Assembly: GCA_021734945.1 (NCBI GenBank)
Contig: JAIPIA010000001.1
Span: 244,415 to 308,414 of the forward strand
From: Minisyncoccota bacterium
GTDB taxonomy: Bacteria; Patescibacteriota; Minisyncoccia; Phycocordibacterales; CAIZLB01
DNA length: 64,000 nt
Direction: 5' to 3'
A model generated the notes under the pieces. It saw nothing but the letters and a program-made list of their open reading frames with translations. It was not told the origin of the DNA and ran no database searches. This document shows, one piece after another, positions 3,543 to 41,431 of the stretch; positions within the stretch are counted from its first letter, which is position 1; each line of letters starts with the position of its first letter. A program made the position numbers and the translations under genes.

Positions 3543-6182
3543 TTAAATTGCAGGAGCAACAAAGTTAATCAACTTACCTTTCACATATATTACCTTAGTT
3601 GGCTTAGTATCACCCAATCTTTTAACTATCTCGTCAAGCTTAAGAGCGAGCTCAACTACATGAGCTTCTGTATCATCAGATACAGTCATTGTTGCACGAA
3701 CTTTACTGTTAATTTGGACTACAATTTTGAATGTACTTGATTGTAATTTTGTAACATCATATACAGGCCACGCTTCTAAGTGGATGCTTTTTTTGTTTCC
3801 AAGTTGTGACCATAAATCCGCTGTAACATAAGGCGCAAATGGAGCGAGGAGTTTAAGTAATATTTCGTAGTTCTCTCGACTTATCTTGCGCTCTGAGAGT
3901 TCCTTTTGCTCTAATTGAGTATTTTGACCTACAGACTGTGTTTCTTTTTCGAGTGCGTTTAAAAGAATCATAAGAGATGAAATTGCAGTATTGTGTGCAA
4001 AACTTTCTATATCCTCCCCTACTTTTTTAATAGTTCGGTGGATCAATGATTCAAGTTCATCATTTGAAGTCTGCTCAGATTTTTTAGTAGTTTTTGATTC
4101 AACTTTTTGTAATAGCCGATACACACGCTCAATAAATCTACGTGACCCAATCATATTGTCTGTACTCCAGGCTATTCCGGCTTCAAATGGACCCATAAAC
4201 ATTTCATATACTCGAAGTGTATCTGCACCATAAAGCTTTACGATGTCATCAGGATTAACAACGTTTCCATACCTCTTACTCATCTTTCTACCGTCAGGAC
4301 CTGCAATTAATCCCTGATTCTTTAGCGACATGAATGGTTCAGATGTTGAAACAGCTCCAATGTCATACAAGAATTTGTGCCAAAAACGAGCATATATAAG
4401 GTGACGTGTAGCGTGTTCTGCTCCACCTACGTACATATCTACTGGCTGCCAATACTTTTCTTTTTTCGGGTCTACGAGAGCTTTGTTATTTTTAGGGTCA
4501 ATAAATCGGAGATAGTACCAACATGAACCGGCCCATTGTGGCATTGTATTTGTTTCTCGCTTTGCAGGAGTCTTACAAACTGGACATTTTACATTTACCC
4601 ATGCATCAATAGCTGCAAGCGGTGATTCTCCTGTGCCTGTAGGTTCGTATGACTTTACGTTCGGGAGCTTGAGAGGAAGATCCTTCTCAGGAACAGGAAC
4701 AACTCCACATTTTGGACAATGTATAAGTGGAATAGGTTCACCCCAATATCGCTGTCGTGAAAACACCCAATCTCGGAGTTTGTAGTTCGTAACAAGCTTT
4801 CCAAATTTCTGTGCAATTTGAATCCGGGCATCTTCAGAAGATATATTTGAAAATTCACCAGAGTTACAAGTACGTCCGAGATGTAAGATTGGACCTTCTT
4901 GTTTTATATATTCTAATTCATCACATTTATATTTTTCATGAAAATTAGCTGAAGCATTTCCATCCATGAATACAGTCTGTTTAAATTCCAAATTATACTT
5001 TTTTGAAAAAGCCCAATCACGTTCGTCATGAGCTGGTACTGCCATTACTGCACCAGTTCCATACCCTGCTAATACATAATCAGCAAGCCAAACTGGAATC
5101 TCTTCATTGTTTGCTGGGTTTATAGCTTTGATACCCTTAATTTCAACTCCGTTCTTTTCCTTCCCTTCAGCTGTTCTTTCGATGTCAGTCTTACCTTTGA
5201 GGGATTCAATAAAAGAATTTATTTCATCCTTATTTGTTGACTGTCCTAGAAGTTGATTAACAAGTTTGTGTTCAGGAGCAAGGACAACATATGTAACACC
5301 AAAGAGCGTGTCCGCTCTTGTTGTAAAGACAGAAATTTTTGTATTCTCTATTCCAGAATATCCATCAACTTTTATTTTAAAATCAAATTCAGCTCCTTCA
5401 CTTCGTCCAATCCAATTTCGCTGTGATTCTTTGATTGATTCAGGCCAATTGAGTGCGTCTATATCTTTAAGAAGTCTGTCTGCGTACTTAGTGATTTTAA
5501 TAATCCACTGTCGTATAGGTTTCTGCTCAACAACTGATCCACATCGTTCGCATTTACCGTCTTCGAGGTCTTCGTTTGCAAGACCAGTTTTACATGATGG
5601 ACACCAGTTGATTGGTTCATGCGATTCGTGTGTAAGACCTTTTTTATGCATCTGCAAAAATGCCCACTGAGTCCACTTGTAGTATTCAGGATCTGTTGTA
5701 TTTATTTCTCGTGACCAGTCATAGTTTAATCCGAGTATTGAAAGTTGCTCTTTAAAGCGTTTAACATTTGTTTTTACTGCAATACTTGGATGCACTTTAT
5801 TTTTGAGAGCGAACTCTTCGGCTGGTAAGCCAAAAGCATCCCAACCCATTGGGTGTAAGACGTTGAATCCCTTCATAGTTTTAAATCGAGAGTATGAGTC
5901 TGTAGCGATGTATCCTCTTGGATGACCAACGTGTAAACCTGTGCCAGATGGATAAGGAAACATATCGAGTACGTACGCCTTAGGCTTGTTCTTATTTTCC
6001 TGAGTCTTGTATATCTTGGTTTTATCCCACACTTTCTGCCACTTTTTCTCAATCTTTAAATGGTCATATGCTTCAACTTTTTTTGGAGAACTAATTTTTG
6101 TTTTGGTAGATATCTTAGCTTTTGTAGTTTTTTTTAATGCCTTCTTTTTACTTGGTTTCATGTGATTTTCTTGTTTTAGCAC
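3543..6182 (-). CDS. leuS: Leucyl-tRNA synthetase with a Lys-rich N-terminal extension.
   Basis: YVLDMFPYPSGTGLHVGHPRGYIATDSYSRF (HIGH-type motif), the KMSKRYGNVVNP (KMSKS) motif and an editing-domain insertion; 879 aa. Confidence 0.95.
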   Translation of the reverse strand: MLKQENHMKPSKKKALKKTTKAKISTKTKISSPKKVEAYDHLKIEKKWQKVWDKTKIYKTQENKNKPKAYVLDMFPYPSGTGLHVGHPRGYIATDSYSRFKTMKGFNVLHPMGWDAFGLPAEEFALKNKVHPSIAVKTNVKRFKEQLSILGLNYDWSREINTTDPEYYKWTQWAFLQMHKKGLTHESHEPINWCPSCKTGLANEDLEDGKCERCGSVVEQKPIRQWIIKITKYADRLLKDIDALNWPESIKESQRNWIGRSEGAEFDFKIKVDGYSGIENTKISVFTTRADTLFGVTYVVLAPEHKLVNQLLGQSTNKDEINSFIESLKGKTDIERTAEGKEKNGVEIKGIKAINPANNEEIPVWLADYVLAGYGTGAVMAVPAHDERDWAFSKKYNLEFKQTVFMDGNASANFHEKYKCDELEYIKQEGPILHLGRTCNSGEFSNISSEDARIQIAQKFGKLVTNYKLRDWVFSRQRYWGEPIPLIHCPKCGVVPVPEKDLPLKLPNVKSYEPTGTGESPLAAIDAWVNVKCPVCKTPAKRETNTMPQWAGSCWYYLRFIDPKNNKALVDPKKEKYWQPVDMYVGGAEHATRHLIYARFWHKFLYDIGAVSTSEPFMSLKNQGLIAGPDGRKMSKRYGNVVNPDDIVKLYGADTLRVYEMFMGPFEAGIAWSTDNMIGSRRFIERVYRLLQKVESKTTKKSEQTSNDELESLIHRTIKKVGEDIESFAHNTAISSLMILLNALEKETQSVGQNTQLEQKELSERKISRENYEILLKLLAPFAPYVTADLWSQLGNKKSIHLEAWPVYDVTKLQSSTFKIVVQINSKVRATMTVSDDTEAHVVELALKLDEIVKRLGDTKPTKVIYVKGKLINFVAPAI

Positions 6183-6222: not shown

Positions 6223-7233
6223 TTAGTTTTGCTGTTTAATATACTTCTTATTTAGGTAATAGGTCAAATATCCCAGGGCTATGATAAGCAGACCAGAAAC
6301 AAGGAGTGCCAGCGAGAAACTAATACTATCTGCAAAATATTGAACTGATATTTTTATACAATAAATACCTATTGCAATTGATGTTATGACTAAGCCAATT
6401 TGAGTCCTTAAATTAATACTTAATACTACTGCTCCTATAGCTAAGAATGCATAGATGAAATTCCAGAAACCACCTAGGAATAGAGCTGCAAACATAAATA
6501 GAGCAAAAGCAAGGAATGTATATATTGACGAGAGGGTTCTGTTACTTTTAGACGCTATATTACTGTTGTCTTCAACAGCTTTTTTGACCCATGATCCATA
6601 CATGAGATATCCAATCGCTAGAATCATTGAGGCGTATGTTACGACGTCTTTGAGTACATACAAATCGAAACCACTTCCCTTTAAGAATTTAGCGACACAT
6701 GCATAATACGCGACTGTAAAGAAAACAGTTAAAATAATATGAAGTATTTTTTTATGAGTTGCATACAGAGCAACGGCGAATATAGCAAAAAGTACAGTTG
6801 AGACGAGCAGTGAAGAATTGGCAGTGTCCCATGAAGTGGTGGCAACACCATTTATCCAAACAAAACCACCAATAAACAATGTTATAGACGAAACAGTTAG
6901 AAAAACTTGAGTGAGAACATTGTATTGCTCTTTTTTGTATACAAGGATTGCTGAAACAAATGTTGCTAGGCCAAAACCTACTGTTACAAGCCATCTGCCA
7001 GCAAATCCAATTGCATTCCAATTATTTGAAAGCAATACAATTACACCAATAACGGCAATGACACCTCCAATAGTATAAAGAACTTTTGGAACTATCGAAC
7101 TTTTATCAGATGTATCGGCTGTCCCCGTAGTAGCGAGGGTGTGACCTGTTGCGACAGCGATTACCTCGTCTTTCGAAACGATGTTTTGATCTATAGACTC
7201 CTTGATTGTCTTTAAAACTTGTTCTTTGTTCAT
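6223..7233 (-). CDS. Polytopic integral membrane protein, hypothetical (DUF2157/DUF4401-like architecture).
   Basis: A soluble N-terminal segment followed by at least 8 hydrophobic helices. Confidence 0.55.
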   Translation of the reverse strand: MNKEQVLKTIKESIDQNIVSKDEVIAVATGHTLATTGTADTSDKSSIVPKVLYTIGGVIAVIGVIVLLSNNWNAIGFAGRWLVTVGFGLATFVSAILVYKKEQYNVLTQVFLTVSSITLFIGGFVWINGVATTSWDTANSSLLVSTVLFAIFAVALYATHKKILHIILTVFFTVAYYACVAKFLKGSGFDLYVLKDVVTYASMILAIGYLMYGSWVKKAVEDNSNIASKSNRTLSSIYTFLAFALFMFAALFLGGFWNFIYAFLAIGAVVLSINLRTQIGLVITSIAIGIYCIKISVQYFADSISFSLALLVSGLLIIALGYLTYYLNKKYIKQQN

Positions 7234-7244
7234 ATTGTATTTGA

Positions 7245-25989: not shown

Positions 25990-28689
25990 TTAACTGATTA
26001 ATTTAACATATTCTTTTACAAATTCATCATTATTGCTTTTATTGAAGAGAGGAAGCCCAATTAAGTCATAATTTTTACCTTCAATTTTAAGTATTTTTTT
26101 GTCTGAATATTTTTTAGTAATTTCTTTCAAAAACGCATTTTTCCATTCATCTTTTTCCAATAAATTATCACCCTTAGGTTCAATGAAGATTTGATAATAT
26201 AAATCAGATTTATCTTTTAGGAAAAGAATGAAATCTGGTTGAAAACCTCTTCCTTTCTCAAAATCATATATTTTATATTGTTCCTCATTTCTCAATAAAT
26301 AGACTTCTTTATATGTACTTTTAAGGTTGATAATTGTCTCTTTCATGAATTCAATTAACCCCTTTTCTTCGCTTGTTCCATAAAATTGATCTACAACATA
26401 CCAGTCTTCATACTTTAATTCATCTTCAAGCCTTTGACTATACTCATCTTTTTTCACATTTTTTCGCACTTCTTCACCAAAAAATTCAGTCAAATTATAT
26501 GCATCAAACTCAGTACCTTTATATGGATTTATATGTTGTTTAAGTTCCGTAAATATTATATCTAAAGCTTTGAGAAGTACACTCAACTTTTCCTTATTAG
26601 TGATTTCATCAAAACTAGATTTTGTTGTTACAAGTTTAATTTTTAAGTCCCCAATTAGTTTTACTCTAAAATCTTCCACTGATTCTATATTTTCAACTTC
26701 TTGCTGTAAAAATTCAAACCGTAAAAGAGAGGACTGCTTTTTAGATTTTATATTTACTGCCTTATCAAAAATATGCTTTTCGAAATCTTTAATTGATTTG
26801 GTTATAGTCCTCTTATTTACATCATTAATATTCAATCTTTCGGTATCAGAATCTTGTTTATCAAAATCAATTTGCTCTTCTGTAATTCCAAGACTTTCTA
26901 AATCAAATTTTAGATCTAGAGTTTCTTTTAGGTAATCTAAGGTCTTTTGTTTTCTTTCTGGGTTTTCAATCTTTTCATTTTTCCAAATCTTTACATCCTT
27001 AAAAAAATCAGTGCTTGTAAAACTAGATTTCATTTTAAACTTCTTTTCTATCCTATTATCCTGAATGAACCCTTTTTCTTTTAACTGACTCTTCAGATCT
27101 GAAATATATCTATGGTCTGAATCACTATGATAGTACAACTCTTCAAGCACTCTCATTTCACAACCGATATTTTCATCAAACTTTCGTTTATTTTTTATCT
27201 TATCTTTGTATGAAAAAGGATAATATCTAACACCTCGTCCAATTAATTGAATTTCAGAGATTGCTGTACCCGTAAAAACTCTTTCGCCATTTCTACCTTC
27301 TGAGTCAATTCTACCGTCATACAAGCGCACAATATCAAAAAGATTTAAAACATCCCAACCTTCAGTTAATCTATTTACAGTAAAGATTGCTCGTATATGA
27401 TTATCTTTGTCTTCAAGATTGTTTAGAAGCTTATCAGTGTCTTCGTCAATATTTTCTTTTGTTTTAGCTTTGTTACTTTTAGAGTTTGTAATAACACAGT
27501 TCCTTTCTGTAAAATTATCTCTAATAAAATTTATTATTTCAGATTTACTAATTCCCTCGTTTTTTATAAATTTAATTAAATCTAAAACTCTCGACTTACC
27601 TTGTTCATACGCGTCTTCACCTTGGGTAAATTTTTCTTCAATGTTTTTTAGGAAGTCAAAATCAGATACCTTTAGGTTCTTTACCATTATTAAAAACTCT
27701 TCAAAGTCAGTTTTTGATTCTTCAATGGTTTTGCTTCTAAAAAGTATTACTGGCTTCCAGTTTGATAGGTTATTCTTAAGAGCAATTTTATGTCTGTACC
27801 AGTTAAAGACTAAAGCCTGCAGTACTCTTTCTTTTTTTTCTAAAGTAGAAGAAAGGATGTTTATTTCCTTAGTATACCCAGCAGATAAAAACTCTTTTAA
27901 TCCAAACTTATATATAGTTTTATCAGTATATTTATCAATTACTTTTTGAATTTCGGGGATAGTGGCAGTAAACTCTAGAAGTATGTTTTTATTATCTTCT
28001 TTCTTTCCATTTTTGTTTAACAATAATTCAATAACGGTATGCTCCCAACCTTTCTTTTCAATTTCTACTTCACTTGTCTTGTCATTAAGTTCTGTGTGTA
28101 AATCTAATTCTCCTTGAAGTTTCTTTGTATCAGTATTTAAATGATGAGCTTCATCAGCCAGCATTACGATATCTTTCTTAATTAAATCATCCAGTAGCAC
28201 CTGATTCTCTTTTTGAATATGAATATCGTTGTAAAGCTGTTGTATAGTAGTCAATTTTATTTCAATACTTTCATTGCTTTTTGAGAAAGTTTCAACTTTT
28301 TTAATATTGATGGTTTCATCTTCCATCACAATCTTATCTGCAAAAAGATATTTATTGTGATTACTATCAATAAAATTATTTTCGGTTTTATAGATAATAT
28401 TCTTTTGATTTACAAAAAAGATAAACTTTCTATATCCCTTTTTGTAATAATGCAAAATACAACTAGCCATTACTAGTGTCTTACCTGTACCTGTTGCCAT
28501 ATTAAACATCAAGTGAGTAGGTTCATTTTTACCTTCTGTCCTTTTTTCATTAAGTAGTAGATACTGAAAAGCTTCTTTTTGCCAGTCAAAAAACGGGTAC
28601 TTTAAATTACTTAAAATATAATCAGGTATTTCAGGTTTTGGAGTACCAAAGTCTACGGCATTTTTTATTTGTTCGTGTAATTCTGCCAT
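25990..28689 (-). CDS. res: Type III restriction enzyme Res subunit (SF2 helicase-like, DEAH).
   Basis: Walker A MFNMATGTGKT, the DEAH box (LADEAHHL), and the size and position immediately after an N6-adenine methyltransferase. Confidence 0.85.
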   Translation of the reverse strand: MAELHEQIKNAVDFGTPKPEIPDYILSNLKYPFFDWQKEAFQYLLLNEKRTEGKNEPTHLMFNMATGTGKTLVMASCILHYYKKGYRKFIFFVNQKNIIYKTENNFIDSNHNKYLFADKIVMEDETINIKKVETFSKSNESIEIKLTTIQQLYNDIHIQKENQVLLDDLIKKDIVMLADEAHHLNTDTKKLQGELDLHTELNDKTSEVEIEKKGWEHTVIELLLNKNGKKEDNKNILLEFTATIPEIQKVIDKYTDKTIYKFGLKEFLSAGYTKEINILSSTLEKKERVLQALVFNWYRHKIALKNNLSNWKPVILFRSKTIEESKTDFEEFLIMVKNLKVSDFDFLKNIEEKFTQGEDAYEQGKSRVLDLIKFIKNEGISKSEIINFIRDNFTERNCVITNSKSNKAKTKENIDEDTDKLLNNLEDKDNHIRAIFTVNRLTEGWDVLNLFDIVRLYDGRIDSEGRNGERVFTGTAISEIQLIGRGVRYYPFSYKDKIKNKRKFDENIGCEMRVLEELYYHSDSDHRYISDLKSQLKEKGFIQDNRIEKKFKMKSSFTSTDFFKDVKIWKNEKIENPERKQKTLDYLKETLDLKFDLESLGITEEQIDFDKQDSDTERLNINDVNKRTITKSIKDFEKHIFDKAVNIKSKKQSSLLRFEFLQQEVENIESVEDFRVKLIGDLKIKLVTTKSSFDEITNKEKLSVLLKALDIIFTELKQHINPYKGTEFDAYNLTEFFGEEVRKNVKKDEYSQRLEDELKYEDWYVVDQFYGTSEEKGLIEFMKETIINLKSTYKEVYLLRNEEQYKIYDFEKGRGFQPDFILFLKDKSDLYYQIFIEPKGDNLLEKDEWKNAFLKEITKKYSDKKILKIEGKNYDLIGLPLFNKSNNDEFVKEYVKLIS

Positions 28690-28690
28690 G

Positions 28691-30751
28691 CTATTTTTTA
28701 GAATAAAAAGCTTTTGTCATCTTTTGGTCTTCGGTAAATATCCCATATTTTTTATCTGCCATTTCACTTTCATTTACATACATTTGATTCAAATCAAGCA
28801 TAGATAAAAACATCCTCTTCTGTTGGTCTAGAGTAAGTTCCTTAAACTCTTCTTCTTCCAATATCTTTTTCTTGAAGTCTCTTATTTTCACGTTATAATT
28901 AAGGAAATATTTTTCAATTAGAATATCAAAAAGTTTTGAAAGAGTAGTTAGATCTTTTGCATTTTGAATCTCCTCTTTTACTTTTTCATTCCATTTTGCA
29001 AGTTCGCAATAGACAAAGTCTCCACCACCTTGCCAATTTACATGTTTAGATATCCCAGATTTGTCACCTAATACAACACCTTTCATTCGTTCTTCTGGAT
29101 TATTATCTTGATAATCAAGTTGTTCAATTCCTATCCATTGCCTGTTAGTTTTGTGTGCTACAGCACAAGTCGTACCACTTCCAGCATGGAAATCTAAAAC
29201 TATATCACCCTTATCTGTAGCAAGTTCCAAAATTCTTTGAAGTAATTTTTCTGGTTTTTTTCCTTTCTTTAAGGATACACCTCCTTCAGAATGTAAATCA
29301 TTCGGCAAAACATCATTCCAAATATCAGAGAGTGGCTCTGAAAATACCAATTTTCCATCTATTTCGATTAACTTATTTGATAAAAATAGTATTGCCTTTC
29401 CATTATATATATAATAGTCATTTTTACCTTCTCGTTTTATATGAAATATTTTTGAAGGCTCTTTGATTGATTGATATTTTGTTTTTACAACTTCATCAGA
29501 CACCGATTTATCATCAAGAGTAACAGGTTGGAATATTTTATCTGCATTATCGTAATAAAACTTTTCAATTTCGTCATCATAAGAATTACTAAAATGCCTC
29601 TTTAAATCTTTCTTTGCAATACCTACATCATCTGCCCATGCATCAAGAACTGTGCAAAATTCCCACTGAGTGTGATTCTTATCAAAGTTTTTAATAAAAC
29701 TACTGTAACGAGTATCCCTCTCCTTCTCTCTAAATATACGATTTATTTTCCATTGTTTTGGATTTTTTGAATAAATTAGTATAAATTCAGAAACATTGAC
29801 CAATCCTAGATTAAATACTTTTGCTCCAGATATTGCACTTCTTTTAATTGTAACAATATTTTTTTTATTATTTTCTCCAAAAATTTCATCCATTAAAATT
29901 TGGAGGTAGGCTATTTCATTATTGTCAATAGAAATAAATATTGAGCCATCATCTCTCATTAAATCTTTAGCAACTTCTAAACGATTTTTCATAAAAGTTA
30001 ACCATGTTGAGTGATTAAAATTATCATTATAAGCAAAACTGTCATTCTTTGTGTTATACGGAGGATCAATGTATATAAGTTTTATCTTTCCACAGAATTC
30101 AGATTTTAAACTATGCAGAGCAAGGAGATTATTACCTTTAATAATCATATTTTCTTGTATTAAACCTGTTTTATCTCTCTTTATTTCTTTTACCACTTCT
30201 CCATCACTCTTGCTGTCTTTGGTGAATCGTTTCCAATTTACAAGAGCTTTCTTATCAAAGAGTCTATCTATCTCATCATGAGCAAGTACTTGATTGAAGA
30301 ATATTTCATTTCTCTTTCCATTTTTTTCTTCGTATATTCCATTTTTTTCGGAGTATTCAAAATATGTATCAGTACCCTCTTCAGTACTTTGTCCTCCTTC
30401 CAAGATACAGTCCTTGAAAGGAAAATCTAAGACAACATTGCTAACATTTTCCAACAATCCATTCTTGTCCGATAAACCTATTTTGTTTGCGTATTTGGTA
30501 TATGAATTATCAACCTTATTTTCATCTAAAAAGAATTTAAAATCCTGAATATTAAAAACATACACATCTTTAATTTTAATAAAGAATTTTGATTTTAGTT
30601 CCTTATTGTCAGCAAGGAGAGAGATGAGCTTTTCATCAATCCTGTCAGCATAATCTTTTACTTTTATGTAATTCAATTCTCCTGATTCAGAGTCAATATA
30701 TTTAGACTCTGCTTTTAATGTTTTCTCGAGAATTTGTTTTATTTTACTCAT
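28691..30751 (-). CDS. mod: Type III R-M Mod subunit (N6-adenine DNA methyltransferase, beta class).
   Basis: IYIDPPYNT catalytic motif followed by VLDFHAGSGTT (FxGxG AdoMet motif). It abuts res with a 1-nt gap. Confidence 0.85.
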   Translation of the reverse strand: MSKIKQILEKTLKAESKYIDSESGELNYIKVKDYADRIDEKLISLLADNKELKSKFFIKIKDVYVFNIQDFKFFLDENKVDNSYTKYANKIGLSDKNGLLENVSNVVLDFPFKDCILEGGQSTEEGTDTYFEYSEKNGIYEEKNGKRNEIFFNQVLAHDEIDRLFDKKALVNWKRFTKDSKSDGEVVKEIKRDKTGLIQENMIIKGNNLLALHSLKSEFCGKIKLIYIDPPYNTKNDSFAYNDNFNHSTWLTFMKNRLEVAKDLMRDDGSIFISIDNNEIAYLQILMDEIFGENNKKNIVTIKRSAISGAKVFNLGLVNVSEFILIYSKNPKQWKINRIFREKERDTRYSSFIKNFDKNHTQWEFCTVLDAWADDVGIAKKDLKRHFSNSYDDEIEKFYYDNADKIFQPVTLDDKSVSDEVVKTKYQSIKEPSKIFHIKREGKNDYYIYNGKAILFLSNKLIEIDGKLVFSEPLSDIWNDVLPNDLHSEGGVSLKKGKKPEKLLQRILELATDKGDIVLDFHAGSGTTCAVAHKTNRQWIGIEQLDYQDNNPEERMKGVVLGDKSGISKHVNWQGGGDFVYCELAKWNEKVKEEIQNAKDLTTLSKLFDILIEKYFLNYNVKIRDFKKKILEEEEFKELTLDQQKRMFLSMLDLNQMYVNESEMADKKYGIFTEDQKMTKAFYSKK

Positions 30752-30803
30752 ATTATGTATTCTCCTAATACTAACAAATTTATAGATAAATGGCTAAACT
30801 ATA

Positions 30804-30985
30804 AGGACTCGGTCACAGGTTCTTTTTGCTCCGCAAAAAGCCCTTCGACCCCACCTCACTCGCAGCAATTCGCCGTGTAAATCCTTCCGGCTCATATAGC
30901 TGCTTCGCTCCGGCTTTCTTCGTCCCCAGAGTCCATATGCATAAATAAAAATACTACATCTTGATAATGTAGTATTTTTATTATG
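30804..30985. repeat. Degenerate copy (unit C) of an approximately 175-nt tandem unit that begins with a fragment of the tRNA-Ala 3' end.
   Basis: aggactcggtca (30804..30815) matches unit B 30998..31009. The following roughly 100 nt align loosely with unit B (e.g. ...tttttgctccgc...cccttcgaccccacctc...tcgcc). Confidence 0.5.
30947..30979. terminator. Perfect AT-rich 13-bp inverted repeat (hairpin), candidate bidirectional terminator.
   Basis: aaaaatactacat-cttgata-atgtagtattttt. Confidence 0.45.
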
Positions 30986-31159
30986 TGTGGACCCTACAGG
31001 ACTCGGTCAGGAATAGTTTTTCGCTACCCGCTCAAAACCTTTCCCGACCCTACCTCGCAGTCTCGCCTACTGGCTCGACATTTGCTCCGTTTTTCTCATC
31101 CTTCAGGTATTCATTAGACAAAAGAAAAAGCCCAACGCAGGTTGGACTCTTTCTTTTGT
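30986..31159. repeat. Unit B of the tandem repeat. Its first 20 nt (30986..31005) are an exact direct repeat of the 3' terminal 20 nt of tRNA-Ala (31160..31179), i.e. an att-like site.
   Basis: tgtggaccctacaggactcg is identical at 30986..31005 and 31160..31179. The sequence diverges immediately afterwards. Confidence 0.65.
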
Positions 31160-31161
31160 TG

Positions 31162-31235
31162 TGGACCCTACAGGACTCGAACCTGCCACCTCCTCAGTGC
31201 AAATGAGGCGCTCTAGCCAGATGAGCTAAGGGCCC
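31162..31235 (-). tRNA. tRNA-Ala (anticodon UGC).
   Basis: The minus-strand sequence GGGCCCUUAGCUCAUCUGGCUAGAGCGCCUCAUUUGCACUGAGGAGGUGGCAGGUUCGAGUCCUGUAGGGUCCA folds as a cloverleaf. It has a 7-bp acceptor stem with the G3:U70 Ala identity pair, anticodon loop UUUGCAC, T-loop UUCGAGU and discriminator A. CCA is not encoded. Confidence 0.88.
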
Positions 31236-31379
31236 GTCTATTTCGTCGTGAAATTTGTTTGTTTAAGTATGTCTCGTCAAAGTCTGGCAACCCGACTAAA
31301 TCTACCTACAAATTTTCAACTAAAAACACGGCTTCCGTACTATTGCACATATACAAGTAACCGCGTAAGCACTATATTA

Positions 31380-32699: not shown

Positions 32700-33016
32700 T
32701 TGATTATACAGTCACTTTGAATTTATAAAAGATACTAACCCCCAGAAATCATCTACATTATGCGCAAAATCTATGGCATAAAAACAAAAAGAGCCTTACA
32801 CGAGGTAGGCTCTAAGACATATATGTTGCTTGTACCGAGGTACTTGCAGTTTCTTTTTGGGAGGTAAAACAAACCTTTGAAAGATTCCATGACACCAAGT
32901 GTTTAGGAATGTTTCTTAAAAGAACTTATGCGATTACAATATCGCGAGTTGAGCGGTGAGTTAGATTATTAATCCGTACTCTTTGCTCAAAGAACTTAAA
33001 TGCGGACGTTCCGCAT

Positions 33017-33172
33017 TGTTGTGTGGGTGGCCCCGGCAAAGATCCCTTTAGAGACCTTAGTATCTGGTGTTTGCACCAAGACGGTTTCCCTCAGGGAACC
33101 TTCACCGGGACCTTGGTCCAACAACCTCAGCTGAGGTTACCAATGGCGTTTAGGCATGCGAAGCCACCACAC
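33017..33172 (-). ncRNA. Candidate small structured RNA (about 155 nt) closed by a terminal helix; class unknown.
   Basis: GC-rich ORF-free patch. Minus-strand 5' GUGUGGUGGC pairs with 3' GCCACCCACAC. Internal hairpins include ACCUCAGCUGAGGU, GGACCAAGGUCC, GGUUCCCUGAGGGAAACC and GGUGCAAACACC. It lies upstream of ddl and downstream of the terminator of the preceding gene. Confidence 0.25.
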
Positions 33173-33261
33173 ACGTCTGAAACAGTACGCTCTTTTAAGA
33201 TTTCTGTCAATAGCCTTTGGTAATGTATATACATTAATTCTAAAACCTTCCTACTTATTCC

Positions 33262-33322
33262 AACACAACAAAAAACCACCGGGCGTACACTACTATTATT
33301 GTAGAGGCACGTATCCGGTGGT
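33262..33322 (-). terminator. Hairpin plus U-tract terminator (minus strand) for the lipoprotein gene.
   Basis: ACCACCGG ... CCGGTGGT 8-bp stem, followed on the minus strand by UUUUUUGUUGUG. Confidence 0.45.
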
Positions 33323-33341
33323 GTTGTCCCGTCAGCAGATA

Positions 33342-33959
33342 TTACTTCTGCTCAAGAGGAGTTGTTTGAAGGGTCGCGGCTGGAACTGTTGCCACCTTCG
33401 GCACCAACAGGTTTGATCTACCGAAAGCATTCTTGCTCGGCGTATCATCGAGGAGATCAGCGAGGATTGCTCGCTTGGCTTCGTCGAGTTTAATAACACC
33501 GACGCGTCCGATCTTTTCATTCGTCAAAATGCGACCGCCTGTTGTGCTGTCAGACACGCTACCAATACTGCGGATGACTTTGTAAACCACAACCTGCGCC
33601 TTGTCACCAGCTTTGAGCTGTTCATCTGCGGTGTACGTGATTTGGACGCCGTCGATTGTGACGAAATTGGTCACGATTCCAAACCGATCTTTCAACGTGA
33701 CTACTTCCCCGACATTGACGTCGGAGACCACTTCCGGATTTGCATCCTCAGTAGTGTAGATTCGCTGAAGGACTAATGGGTAAGTCATAGGCTGTAATGC
33801 CTCTGCCTTGGCCGGAGCAGGACTGGTGGCAGCTTTCTCGCTGCAGCCAGTGAAGCTGAGCATGAGGATGATAACAACAGCGACTCCCATCAAGGGTTCG
33901 AAGCAGTCGAGAATGTCCGCCAGCGCGTGCTGGGGCTTGTTAACTTTATTAATTTTCAT
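33342..33959 (-). CDS. GC-rich putative lipoprotein (205 aa).
   Basis: Signal peptide with a lipobox-like LSFTGCS. G+C is clearly above that of the neighbouring genes. Confidence 0.55.
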   Translation of the reverse strand: MKINKVNKPQHALADILDCFEPLMGVAVVIILMLSFTGCSEKAATSPAPAKAEALQPMTYPLVLQRIYTTEDANPEVVSDVNVGEVVTLKDRFGIVTNFVTIDGVQITYTADEQLKAGDKAQVVVYKVIRSIGSVSDSTTGGRILTNEKIGRVGVIKLDEAKRAILADLLDDTPSKNAFGRSNLLVPKVATVPAATLQTTPLEQK

Positions 33960-34060
33960 AAGGATCTAAGTATGTTGGACTGGATTGTAGGGTGTATTGT
34001 CTGTGCATCGGACATCTGCCGATTTTCATAATAGTACACAAATATTCGATTTAGTCAATA

Positions 34061-39969: not shown

Positions 39970-40683
39970 TTACGCAATCAGTTTGAGATGCAGATCATTG
40001 TGGTGACCAGCGGACGTAGCCAAGGAGATGAATGTCTCTTGAACAGTTTCCTTGGAATCCACTTCGATGACTTTGAAGTCGCAGTATTGACGGAATGCAG
40101 TCAACACGCCCTCAACTTCCGCTTCATAGATTTCGACTCGACGACGGTTCTTTACCTCATCCAAATCAGTTGGACGAGGGGTTCGGCCAGCGGCGATATC
40201 TTCCTCGGCGCGTTTGCGTTGGCGAAGAACTGCGTCGTCTGCTGTAAGCTTGATTTTCGCGACAACAAATGGGATCAGGCCTTCCATGAAATACTCCACT
40301 TTTTGGAAAGCGAAGTGGACCTGCGCGGCCATACGGAAAATACCGCTGGCCACGATCGGTTCATCCTTGTTGATGGACTGCATATAGCGCTCAAAGCGCG
40401 GCAGAATTTCTTCATCAGGGACGAGTTCTCCTTTGCTGCTGCATTCGGCAAACAAGTTGCCGAAGCTCGTGTCGAATGCCGATGCGACTTTGCAAACCCT
40501 GCTCATGTCAACGAAGTGAGATGAGGGGTTGAGCAAGGAAGCGAGCATTCGACCGTGTGTTGTCTTACCTGATCCTGGAGCTCCGAAGATCACGTAACTG
40601 GGGTGTGCTGTTTTCAACATAATGGACTGAGTGCTAGTGTTGGTGGTTCTGGGTGAAATGAAAAGCTTGACTGAATTAGCCAA
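39970..40683 (-). CDS. Divergent GC-rich P-loop nucleoside monophosphate kinase (adenylate-kinase-like) paralog.
   Basis: VIFGAPGSGKTTHGRMLA (P-loop) and LVPDEEI, but it lacks the canonical DGFPRT motif. G+C is much higher than in the adjacent adk. Confidence 0.55.
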   Translation of the reverse strand: MANSVKLFISPRTTNTSTQSIMLKTAHPSYVIFGAPGSGKTTHGRMLASLLNPSSHFVDMSRVCKVASAFDTSFGNLFAECSSKGELVPDEEILPRFERYMQSINKDEPIVASGIFRMAAQVHFAFQKVEYFMEGLIPFVVAKIKLTADDAVLRQRKRAEEDIAAGRTPRPTDLDEVKNRRRVEIYEAEVEGVLTAFRQYCDFKVIEVDSKETVQETFISLATSAGHHNDLHLKLIA

Positions 40684-40741
40684 GCGCTAGCACTATAACA
40701 CGCAACACCATACCAATCAATAATTAAGATAAGAGCAAAAA

Positions 40742-41431
40742 CTACTCAAACAACCTTTCCAACACATCACTGTGCACCTCATGAATCTGTTTAGCTCCGT
40801 CAAATTCATGTAAGTGTGCTTTTCCTTCAAACGCCGCATTGAGATGTGGAATACTGTTGAAATAAATACCAAGTCGCTGTGCAATAGCTTCTGGAGTGTC
40901 ATCAACACGAGCTTCCTTCCCTACTTTTATTAAACCCTCTGCGCGATCAAGACATCGCTTCATTGCATCAGCGTGTTCAAGCTTCATTCGTACGATTGCA
41001 ATCGGTGCTTCTTCCATTCCGTGATACACACGTGAAAGTTCATACAAATGCTGAGTTTGTAAACTAGTTCGTGGAAATCCATCAAATATTAAAACTTCTT
41101 TTGTATCTCCGCTTTGCTGTTTTTTTGAAAAATAATCTTTGAGAATTTCAAAAGTTAATTCGTCAGGAATAAGAACACCTGAGTACATCATTTGCAATGC
41201 CTCTTTATGTTCTGGCTTTTCACTAAATGGAAGTATACTTCGCAAAATATCTCCTACAGATGCATATTCAGCATCAATTTTATCTAAAATAAGTTTCAAC
41301 TGTGTAGTCTTACCAGACCCCTGTGGACCTGTGAGCGCAAGTACTTTGTATTTTGGTTTAAGTTTTTTTGAGTGCGGTGAGTGTGTTGAATTTGTTGAAT
41401 CTGATGTGTGCGGCTGATGTGATGTGGACAT
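40742..41431 (-). CDS. adk: Adenylate kinase with a Ser/Thr/His-rich N-terminal extension.
   Basis: GPQGSGKTTQ, LIPDEL, IFDGFPRT and RVDDTPEAIAQRL. Confidence 0.85.
   Translation of the reverse strand: MSTSHQPHTSDSTNSTHSPHSKKLKPKYKVLALTGPQGSGKTTQLKLILDKIDAEYASVGDILRSILPFSEKPEHKEALQMMYSGVLIPDELTFEILKDYFSKKQQSGDTKEVLIFDGFPRTSLQTQHLYELSRVYHGMEEAPIAIVRMKLEHADAMKRCLDRAEGLIKVGKEARVDDTPEAIAQRLGIYFNSIPHLNAAFEGKAHLHEFDGAKQIHEVHSDVLERLFE

Follow-up and report, generated by a model that had tools for sequence, protein, structure and literature searches.

Two tandem units behind a tRNA-Ala gene belong to a structured, tRNA-linked family of Patescibacteria and are probably successive insertions

Introduction

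What does a repeated tRNA end mean when no integrase accompanies it? We address this question at the tRNA-Ala(UGC) gene of a Minisyncoccota bacterium (Patescibacteria), in a stretch of 64,000 nucleotides (nt) of contig JAIPIA010000001.1 (positions 244,415 to 308,414), referred to here as the window. A sequence-only reading of this DNA had described direct repeats of the tRNA-Ala 3' end in a decayed tandem array beside the genes of a Type III restriction-modification (R-M) system, and had taken them as the footprint of a tyrosine-recombinase island. According to our analysis, the repeats probably mark two copies, acquired one after the other, of a small non-coding element that arises by insertion or duplication on the 3' side of tRNA genes in Patescibacteria; a copy measures about 130-170 nt, to which a hairpin is added. 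The element family is previously undescribed, specific to Patescibacteria, RNA-structured and about 150 nt long. Its members share one architecture, with conserved nucleotides, covarying helices and a single strand; they are linked to 17 anticodons, join the copied tRNA end at C56, are patchily distributed, stack behind the same tRNA, and occur independently of integrases and phages.

Patescibacteria, also known as the candidate phyla radiation (CPR), represent a large share of bacterial diversity and have tiny genomes. To our knowledge, they are almost unexplored for non-coding RNA.

Two intact family members behind tRNA-Ala

The 20-mer TGTGGACCCTACAGGACTCG is present exactly at 30986-31005 and at 31160-31179, with a chance expectation of 0.00, and no third match was found within the 64 kb at up to 3 mismatches. 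In tRNA sense it reads CGAGUCCUGUAGGGUCCACA, which corresponds to T-loop C56 through discriminator A73, plus CA. The 12-mer AGGACTCGGTCA also occurs exactly twice, at 30804-30815 and 30998-31009 (0.10 expected by chance). The repeats of the sequence-only reading are therefore real, each being exact twice. They are copies of the tRNA 3' end made at the tRNA gene and not dispersed repeats. Regarding the third, 12-nt copy, the exact match holds, but it shares only CGAGUCCU with the tRNA; its remaining UGAC belongs to the unit.

Along the minus strand, tRNA-Ala is followed by hairpin 1, unit A, repeat copy 2, hairpin 2, unit B and a decayed third copy, after which come mod and res of the Type III system. 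Unit A begins 34 nt past the tRNA, and unit B is the second member of the tandem pair; the repeats enclose non-coding units of 154 nt and roughly 175 nt. Both units are homologous, with 73% column identity and large indels in one helix, and they share a GGUCG...UGACC hairpin that shows compensatory differences between them, whereas their P2 helices are unrelated. As these helices differ by large indels, Tandem Repeats Finder called no array at the locus. The 3' strand of unit A is identical to the tRNA end at 20 of 20 positions; in unit B the tRNA match survives in the first 8 nt only. Unit A together with its terminator folds with a z-score of -6.8 with respect to shuffled sequences.

A motif common to both units, GAGGTRGGGTCG-N(25-45)-TGACCGAGTCC, was used to search for relatives. 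The search of metagenomes gave 31 loci, and a slightly relaxed form applied to a genome collection gave 28, about 19 of them true and located in metagenome-assembled genomes (MAGs) of Patescibacteria (Saccharibacteria, Nomura-, Campbell-, Kaiser- and Yanofskybacteria, and Paceibacterota). The window itself belongs to a Candidatus Pacebacteria MAG, and its Ddl protein has 100% identity to an NCBI MAG protein. The matches in high-GC Actinomycetota, Streptomyces, Gordonia, Nocardioides, Dehalococcoidia and others failed the covariance model and were discarded as chance. Among 2.9 million viral contigs searched with two patterns there were zero motif matches, which argues that the element is not phage-borne. 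The covariance model brought about 60 matches; among them were additional copies behind other tRNAs in loci already known, as well as pairs in tandem at, for example, tRNA-His and tRNA-Gln. In total, 48 distinct copies were collected from Patescibacteria metagenomes and MAGs.

The membership of the window units was evaluated with a second model, R2, built from 40 members with the window sequences left out. In the 64 kb it recovered unit B at 76.8 bits and unit A at 74.5 bits and nothing else, and both units align with it end to end. Since an independent model scores both highly, the units are intact members of a conserved structured family, and the description as a decayed array has to be abandoned. 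Both contain the three-way junction with GAAAGCCGGAG, GAGGURGGGUCG and UGACCGAGUCC, and the covarying helices P1, P2a and P3. The stacking of copies does correspond, as had been proposed, to repeated events at tRNA-Ala, and tandem doubles are found at other tRNAs as well. The distance from repeat to repeat is usually 117-190 nt at about 20 independent loci, with no protein gene enclosed.

The covariance search of the roughly 175-nt units, which the sequence-only reading had suggested, thus revealed a conserved family; Rfam itself has no match to it. In Rfam 15 the window units have no match at E <= 10, the related locus L022 has none at E <= 1, and nine loci holding the best members have none at the gathering score. 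The weak matches to Rfam miRNA and sRNA models covered the terminator hairpins only. We found no description of the element in the searchable literature.

Three contigs with members carry other labels. A member scoring 99.9 bits lies at L055 7230-7640 (minus strand), together with a class A RNase P RNA, on a contig labelled as an uncultured gammaproteobacterial MAG; the contigs of L056 and L058 bear the labels Bdellovibrionales and Elusimicrobiaceae. The labels may reflect mis-binning of CPR DNA; otherwise the family reaches beyond Patescibacteria.

RNA structure of the element

On the tRNA strand the parts follow one another as a terminator-like hairpin, a 5' strand (A' plus P1-5'), an optional hairpin P0, the core and the copy of the tRNA 3' end. 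The core is composed of GAAA, a short helix GCC/GGU, a tandem G·A, a variable P2, GG, a long P3 and UGAC. A' and P1-5' are complementary to T-loop nt 57-60, the 3' strand of the T-stem and the 3' strand of the acceptor stem of the tRNA. In one subfamily the additional conserved hairpin P0 is set into the 5' strand.

The structure was tested on a MAFFT alignment of 25 members that was blind to structure. The named helices (P1, its outward extension and P3) had 76.7% of their cells paired, compared with 38-45% in slide controls, and none of 500 shuffles reached this value. P3 was 95.7% paired and was recovered by RNAalifold, with changes on both sides in 9 of its 14 pairs. The extra short helix GCC/GGU (columns 41-104) contained 22 G·U, 16 A-U and 9 G-C pairs and no A·C, and is followed by the invariant tandem G·A. 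Over all paired cells G·U amounted to 127 and A·C to 28; in P3 these numbers were 71 and 3. Because G·U far outnumbers A·C, the fold is assigned to the tRNA-sense strand. It would exist there as RNA, and less likely as single-stranded DNA; the same strand-specific pairs, 127 against 28, give indirect support to the expression of the element as RNA.

The 5' strand is specifically complementary to the cognate tRNA 3' end in about 40% of the copies (rank 0-2 among 48 alternatives). Furthermore, 23 of 35 copies form a single long hairpin over the segment that begins at tRNA C56, crosses the terminator and ends with A'; in L013 it reaches -64.6 kcal/mol. Given that the two repeats do not differ, the 3' part of the real tRNA is an alternative pairing partner of the 5' strand. 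The possibility that this strand is simply a copy of the tRNA's own 5' acceptor strand was rejected, given that L013, L022 and L042 differ from it at informative positions; its origin may be either fold-back or selection.

Comparison by eye with known motifs led to the rejection of three further candidates: a hammerhead, whose order of junction strands does not fit; a canonical kink-turn, since the tandem G·A has a 1-nt bulge; and a kissing contact between P0 and P3 within one RNA. In the last case the P0 loop (AACUGCUU) does complement the P3 loop CAGCAG, but the two loops occur in different subfamilies, for example L011, L033 and L063 for the former and L016, L020 and L044 for the latter (alignment A3). 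It is conceivable that these loops pair in trans between RNAs of different subfamilies.

Association with tRNA genes

Most copies (36 of 48) start no more than 100 nt downstream of a tRNA gene on the same strand. Another six lie inside a degenerate tRNA-Gln (positions 1-54), just upstream of an intact tRNA-Gln, and one is cut off by a contig edge. The other five comprise two second members of tandem pairs, one copy with an intervening island, one with an intervening copy and open reading frame (ORF), and one on a very short contig. The 17 anticodons involved include four of Leu, Asp, two of Arg, Trp, Cys, Val, His, Met, Lys, two of Gln, and Ala. Directly after the invariant UGAC, each element continues as a copy of the neighbouring tRNA from C56 on, with an exact match of 11-27 nt, usually 19-20 nt, that ends at position 74-75. 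Even unusual T-loops (CGAAUCC, CAAAUCC, CGAUUCC) are carried in the 3' strand, and P1-5' covaries with them (GGGAUUU, GGAAUC). The window copies behave in the same way: they lie on the strand of tRNA-Ala, directly downstream of it, and their 3' end copies the tRNA from C56.

The Gln-type copies, which consist of tRNA-Gln 1-54, the element and then 56-67, raise the question of whether the family could derive from interrupted tRNA paralogues (with a T-loop intron, split or permuted) that are now degenerate. The sense tRNA-Lys 44-53 kept ahead of the element in L041 and L046, and the acceptor-5'-like and T-stem-5'-like strands of many copies, would agree with such an origin. However, we consider it very unlikely: a typical copy has neither D arm nor anticodon arm, P1-5' complements T-loop nt 57-60, which are partnerless in a tRNA, the 5' strands of L013, L022 and L042 depart from a tRNA 5' acceptor strand at the positions referred to above, and the pseudo-tRNA-Gln parts are decaying (e.g. 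L025, L030). The group I introns described in Patescibacteria tRNAs are much larger and are found in the anticodon loop, at position 35/36 (PMC13011429). The element was also rejected as a group I intron in its own right, considering its junction in the T-loop, its length of about 100 nt and the lack of any Rfam group I match.

In the window the partner on the other side is the mod gene. Unit B passes without a terminator into the mod leader, with a ribosome-binding site and ATG at 30749-30766 and the mod start at 30751, and a compact three-way junction is found in many aptamers. A cis-regulatory leader of mod, such as a tandem riboswitch, is nevertheless extremely unlikely: the downstream neighbours of the 47 other copies are unrelated (other tRNAs and assorted genes), none of those copies has R-M genes beside it, and the constant partner is the upstream tRNA.

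Presence, absence and exchange of copies

The sequence-only reading had proposed a search of related genomes for an empty tRNA-Ala site, and this site was found. In the relatives L003 to L008, ddl, tRNA-Ala and the terminator are present without the element and without R-M genes; their Ddl proteins are 77-81% identical and their tRNA-Ala 3' end is identical. Position also changes among lineages. In a homologous Cys/Leu/Lys tRNA cluster the element is located behind Leu(CAG), Leu(UAA), Leu(UAG) or Cys, according to the lineage, and for 31 of 44 copies the closest relative of the core is found at another tRNA type.

Some loci contain reduced or additional pieces. L022 has a third, 12-nt copy of a tRNA end. 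At L015 830-1030 a different insert of 78 nt follows the tRNA and ends in a 22-nt repeat from T54, and at L046 5050-5240 (minus-strand reading) an insert of 55 nt lies within a partial tRNA-Lys T-arm; neither matches the family model. Both keep fragments such as GGGAGUCGAAGACC or CGACGAGGUGUG and may be deletion derivatives of the family. In addition, L046 contains three copies of the tRNA-Lys end, with an ORF of 217 amino acids (4359-5012, minus strand) between two of them and just upstream of an intact element copy; no other repeat-bounded unit was seen to contain a gene. At L042 1691-1960, an exact repeat of 95 nt with a period of 168 nt spans the tRNA-Asp 3' part, the terminator, the 5' strand and the beginning of P0; either the whole unit was duplicated in tandem very recently or the repeat is an artefact of the assembly.

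Insertion element or resident RNA

In the favoured reading, a new copy would arise by insertion or recombination in the segment of a tRNA gene that extends from the T-loop to the 3' end. The tRNA would remain whole in this event, and the element would end distally in a second version of the tRNA 3' part, so that later events could stack further copies behind the same tRNA; units A and B would be two separate events of this kind, and the enzyme would act in trans. The element would be transcribed together with the tRNA by read-through, and its RNA would close on itself by pairing of the 5' strand with the copied tRNA end, giving an acceptor/T-arm-like helix capped by the junction. Such a helix would be a mimic of a tRNA end that tRNA-processing enzymes could recognise. 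The 5' strand could instead pair with the 3' part of the real tRNA.

Several observations weigh against this scheme. We identified no recombinase, transposase, circular or empty-site intermediate, and we infer mobility from the distribution alone. A promoter scan gave no sigma-70-like promoter for the window units, and a terminator-like hairpin usually stands between tRNA and element. In the window units, the complementarity of the 5' strand to the 3' end is only partial, with ranks of 6 and 18 among 48. Between the GAAA junction and UGAC, L011 (Val) and L042 (Asp) have inner cores that are 94% identical, but their A', P0, P1-5' and 3' repeat are different throughout and agree in each case with the tRNA of the locus. 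Simple cut-and-paste does not predict this pattern, which would fit if resident copies exchanged their cores or if some mechanism rewrote the ends. Furthermore, L016 and L031 retain a 5' strand that matches the tRNA next to a decayed 3' repeat, and the terminal helices of L027 and L037 differ by compensatory double changes; both patterns suggest a long residence under selection on an RNA helix.

These same patterns, together with the 23 long hairpins mentioned above, would be expected of a resident family of host RNA genes, not mobile DNA, whose terminal helix must match the partner tRNA, an explanation that we regard, tentatively, as the main alternative. Such an RNA could act as a switch dependent on read-through: its 5' strand would associate either with the 3' part of the real tRNA, whose folding or maturation would then be blocked, or with the copy as a decoy. 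Another option is a mimic of the tRNA end that is acted on by RNase P, RNase Z or the CCA-adding enzyme. Selection or short-tract gene conversion would maintain the identity with the tRNA. The deep conservation of the junction nucleotides, the covariation of the helices across several Patescibacteria lineages, and the constant position immediately downstream of the tRNA on the same strand are consistent with it. On the contrary, presence is patchy at orthologous tRNA sites and in close relatives, weak-scoring or truncated copies and orphan repeat fragments are many, tandem copies have unrelated P2 helices, and the Gln-type copies are embedded in decaying pseudo-tRNAs. A perfect 3' repeat is accompanied by a poor 5' strand in unit A of the window and in L028, L056-Val and L060, and the hairpin between tRNA and element resembles an intrinsic terminator.

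It should be noted that an insertion element and a resident, tRNA-specific RNA family are not mutually exclusive. A third proposal, which we judge unlikely, is that the element RNA is programmable, its 5' strand (complement of tRNA 57-73) and copied 3' strand being written from its tRNA or guiding the recognition of it. This could take two forms: RNA-guided insertion into the T-loop free of protein genes, or per-tRNA switch or decoy RNAs that may control or back up the 3' half of their partner in these bacteria of minimal genome. What keeps the proposal alive is that the near-identical cores of L011 Val and L042 Asp sit in scaffolds matched to their own tRNA.

If the element is mobile, it would represent a new form of parasitism of the T-loop, the most conserved DNA of the cell, in which the tRNA is spared and no recombinase is carried. 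If it is a host RNA, tRNA-specific mimics or switches of the acceptor arm would constitute a new layer of tRNA biology. In either case, programs that detect islands by taking partial tRNA repeats for att sites will be misled by these units, which also account for "orphan" tRNA fragments in CPR genomes.

Integrase islands and the restriction-modification genes

A tRNA 3' duplication beside an intact tRNA is the classical footprint of an island (Islander, PMC4383910), and repeated integration that pushes older elements outward has been documented for tycheposons (bioRxiv 10.1101/2020.12.28.424599). The repeats could accordingly be att sites of tyrosine-recombinase islands at tRNA-Ala, the units decayed island ends and the R-M genes their cargo. 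Patescibacteria do have integrases that target tRNA 3' ends, namely large serine recombinases at tRNA-Val and tmRNA. The R-M block is also low in GC (0.27-0.32, about 0.38 in the background) and lies inside a 9.3-kb variable region, from tRNA-Ala to nrdA (about 21.9-31.2 kb), and in the relatives L003 and L007 no homologues of the R-M region were found downstream of tRNA-Ala.

In spite of these points, the att-site explanation appears improbable and is largely refuted. The empty site is present in relatives, but the repeats of the window enclose no integrase and bound no multi-gene island. No tyrosine or serine recombinase domain was detected in any ORF of the region between 21.9 and 31.2 kb, and tblastn with the serine recombinase of L011 returned nothing in the window. 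The short, protein-free spacing of 117-190 nt recurs at about 20 loci with a conserved, covarying interior, a picture that random deletion remnants would not give. The absence of motif matches among the viral contigs also speaks against it. Of the earlier claim on an R-M island, what remains is a low-GC variable segment absent from relatives; the R-M genes lie beyond the last repeat, and no further repeat or element copy within the 64 kb bounds them.

L011 is the only related locus where an integrase accompanies the element. Here tRNA-Val and an element ending in an identical 21-nt tRNA-Val end are 5.1 kb apart, and between them are encoded a large serine recombinase, a protein with an FtsK-gamma winged helix-turn-helix (wHTH) and an AAA ATPase. 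We considered L011 as a full-size, element-bearing island and rejected it: five loci with related recombinases have no element, and the island ends before the element's hairpin. These five homologous recombinases abut tRNA-Val or tmRNA in the same manner, with an ORF that overlaps the tRNA end by about 13 nt; the element-free islands include L068, L071, L073 and L074. The right end of the L011 island aligns with L073 up to GACGTCGC(T/G)CAC and then diverges, and the island, with a 9-nt tRNA-end remnant of its own, terminates about 15 nt ahead of the hairpin of the element. As its right end stops short of this hairpin, the L011 island was inserted between the tRNA and a pre-existing element, a further point against the att-site explanation.

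Regarding these islands themselves, the large serine recombinases (L011 4427-9420; also L068, L070, L071/L072, L073 and L074) head islands of 5-9 kb with defence-type cargo. Their ORFs overlap the last ~13 nt of tRNA-Val or, in L070, of tmRNA. The cargo includes an AAA_21/AAA_15 ATPase and, in L071, a Tsp45I-like R-M system, SLFN/AlbA_2, DUF8370/8371 and an HTH_17 excisionase-like gene. The distal end of L073, whose tRNA is not on the contig, resembles the ~9-nt remnant of L011, by analogy with the tRNA-Val of L068. In the L011 island a LOOT RNA (Rfam RF03000, 73.7 bits) is located at 7114-7244 (minus strand), between the wHTH and ATPase genes.

Comparison with known systems

The element resembles tRNA-targeting islands (Islander/TIGER-type islands, Prochlorococcus tycheposons) in the intact tRNA followed by a displaced 3' copy, in the stacking, in the partial tRNA copies downstream, and in a tRNA site that acts as a hot spot beside variable, horizontally acquired genes. 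In contrast to them, it has no integrase and usually no protein gene, measures about 150 nt instead of kilobases, has a conserved, covarying and strand-specific interior, and carries a complement of the tRNA end matched to each tRNA.

Miniature inverted-repeat transposable elements (MITEs) and other small non-autonomous repeats (Correia, RPE, REP, PATEs) are likewise short, non-coding, multi-copy, patchy and foldable, and mobilised in trans if at all. However, the ends of the element are not fixed terminal inverted repeats; its outer helix is made of target tRNA sequence and covaries. Moreover, it is found at the T-loop C56 of tRNA genes only, in one orientation, and its duplication of ~19-20 nt exceeds the usual target-site duplications. 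An assignment as MITE was rejected, since P1 and the acceptor-like helix, which form the terminal pairing, vary according to the tRNA, and the duplicated segment comprises at least 19-20 nt of tRNA.

With tRNA-like RNAs (the tRNA-like domain of tmRNA, YrlA Y RNA, mascRNA and viral tRNA-like structures) the element shares termini that pair as an acceptor/T-arm-like helix with a discriminator-like overhang, and for this reason its processing by tRNA enzymes is plausible. It differs from them in the junction core that replaces the T-loop, and in a helix that copies the neighbouring tRNA, the partner varying from copy to copy. The Rfam models of tRNA, tmRNA and mascRNA did not match the element.

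Integron attC sites and other folded single-stranded att sites (CTX phage attP) also form arrays at a fixed site, with strand-specific folded inverted arms and a recombinase outside the unit. Unlike attC, the element has no IntI/Xer context or R/L boxes, and its arms are tRNA-derived and split by a conserved three-way junction; unlike integron cassettes, it encloses an ORF in one copy only, L046. The integron cassette was rejected as a candidate because no integrase exists in the window and the conserved motifs are unrelated to GTTRRRY boxes.

Finally, the guide RNAs of mobile elements (IS110 bridge RNA, IS200/605 omega/reRNA, and the exon-binding and intron-binding sites, EBS-IBS, of group II introns) are similar in that a structured RNA at the end is partly complementary or identical to the flank of the insertion site. 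The element differs in that it has no recombinase, nuclease or reverse transcriptase gene and no similarity to them in sequence or structure, and guidance is a hypothesis only.

Positions and minor observations

The positions of the parts are collected in Table 1.

Table 1. Features of the tRNA-Ala locus in the window, read on the minus strand
Feature	Positions	Strand	Evidence or remark
tRNA-Ala(UGC) gene, intact	31161..31235	-	Anchor of the array; ARAGORN; Rfam tRNA 61.1 bits
Repeat copy 1, the tRNA's own T-loop C56 to A73 plus CA (CGAGUCCUGUAGGGUCCACA)	31160..31179	-	Exact 20-mer
Hairpin 1, terminator-like, between tRNA and unit A	31118..31159	-	19-bp stem, then U-rich tail; inverted repeat I1, fold
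Unit A, tRNA-proximal element copy	30986..31117	-	Covariance model R1 85.7 bits; R2 74.5 bits, E = 4e-19
Unit A, 5' strand and P1-5'	31098-31107		
Unit A, junction GAGAAAAACGGAGC	31084-31097		
Unit A, P2	31057-31083		
Unit A, GAGGUAGG	31049-31056		
Unit A, P3 hairpin	31005-31049		
Unit A, 3' strand	30986-31005		Repeat copy 2
Hairpin 2, terminator-like, between units A and B	30944..30982	-	Perfect 16-bp stem, A-tract and U-tract flanks; inverted repeat I2, fold
Unit B, distal element copy	30791..30943	-	R1 88.7 bits; R2 76.8 bits, E = 9e-20
Unit B, P1-5'	30922-30931		
Unit B, junction GAAGAAAGCCGGAGC	30907-30921		
Unit B, long P2	30858-30906		
Unit B, GAGGUGGG	30850-30857		
Unit B, P3	30811-30850		
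Unit B, 3' strand CGAGUCCUUAUAGUUUAGCCA	30791-30811		
Type III R-M genes	25990..30751	-	Context only, outside the element; mod 28691-30751, res 25990-28689; Pfam, PADLOC

Other observations concern the surroundings of the array. In the 5' part of the Type III mod coding region a 21-nt unit is present twice at 30316-30356, with an 85% match. The bins 33001-34000 and 40001-41000 of the window have a GC content of 0.49 and 0.48, compared with about 0.38; the first of them covers an ORF of 205 amino acids (33342-33959, minus strand) that has no Pfam match and has a homologue in the relative L002.

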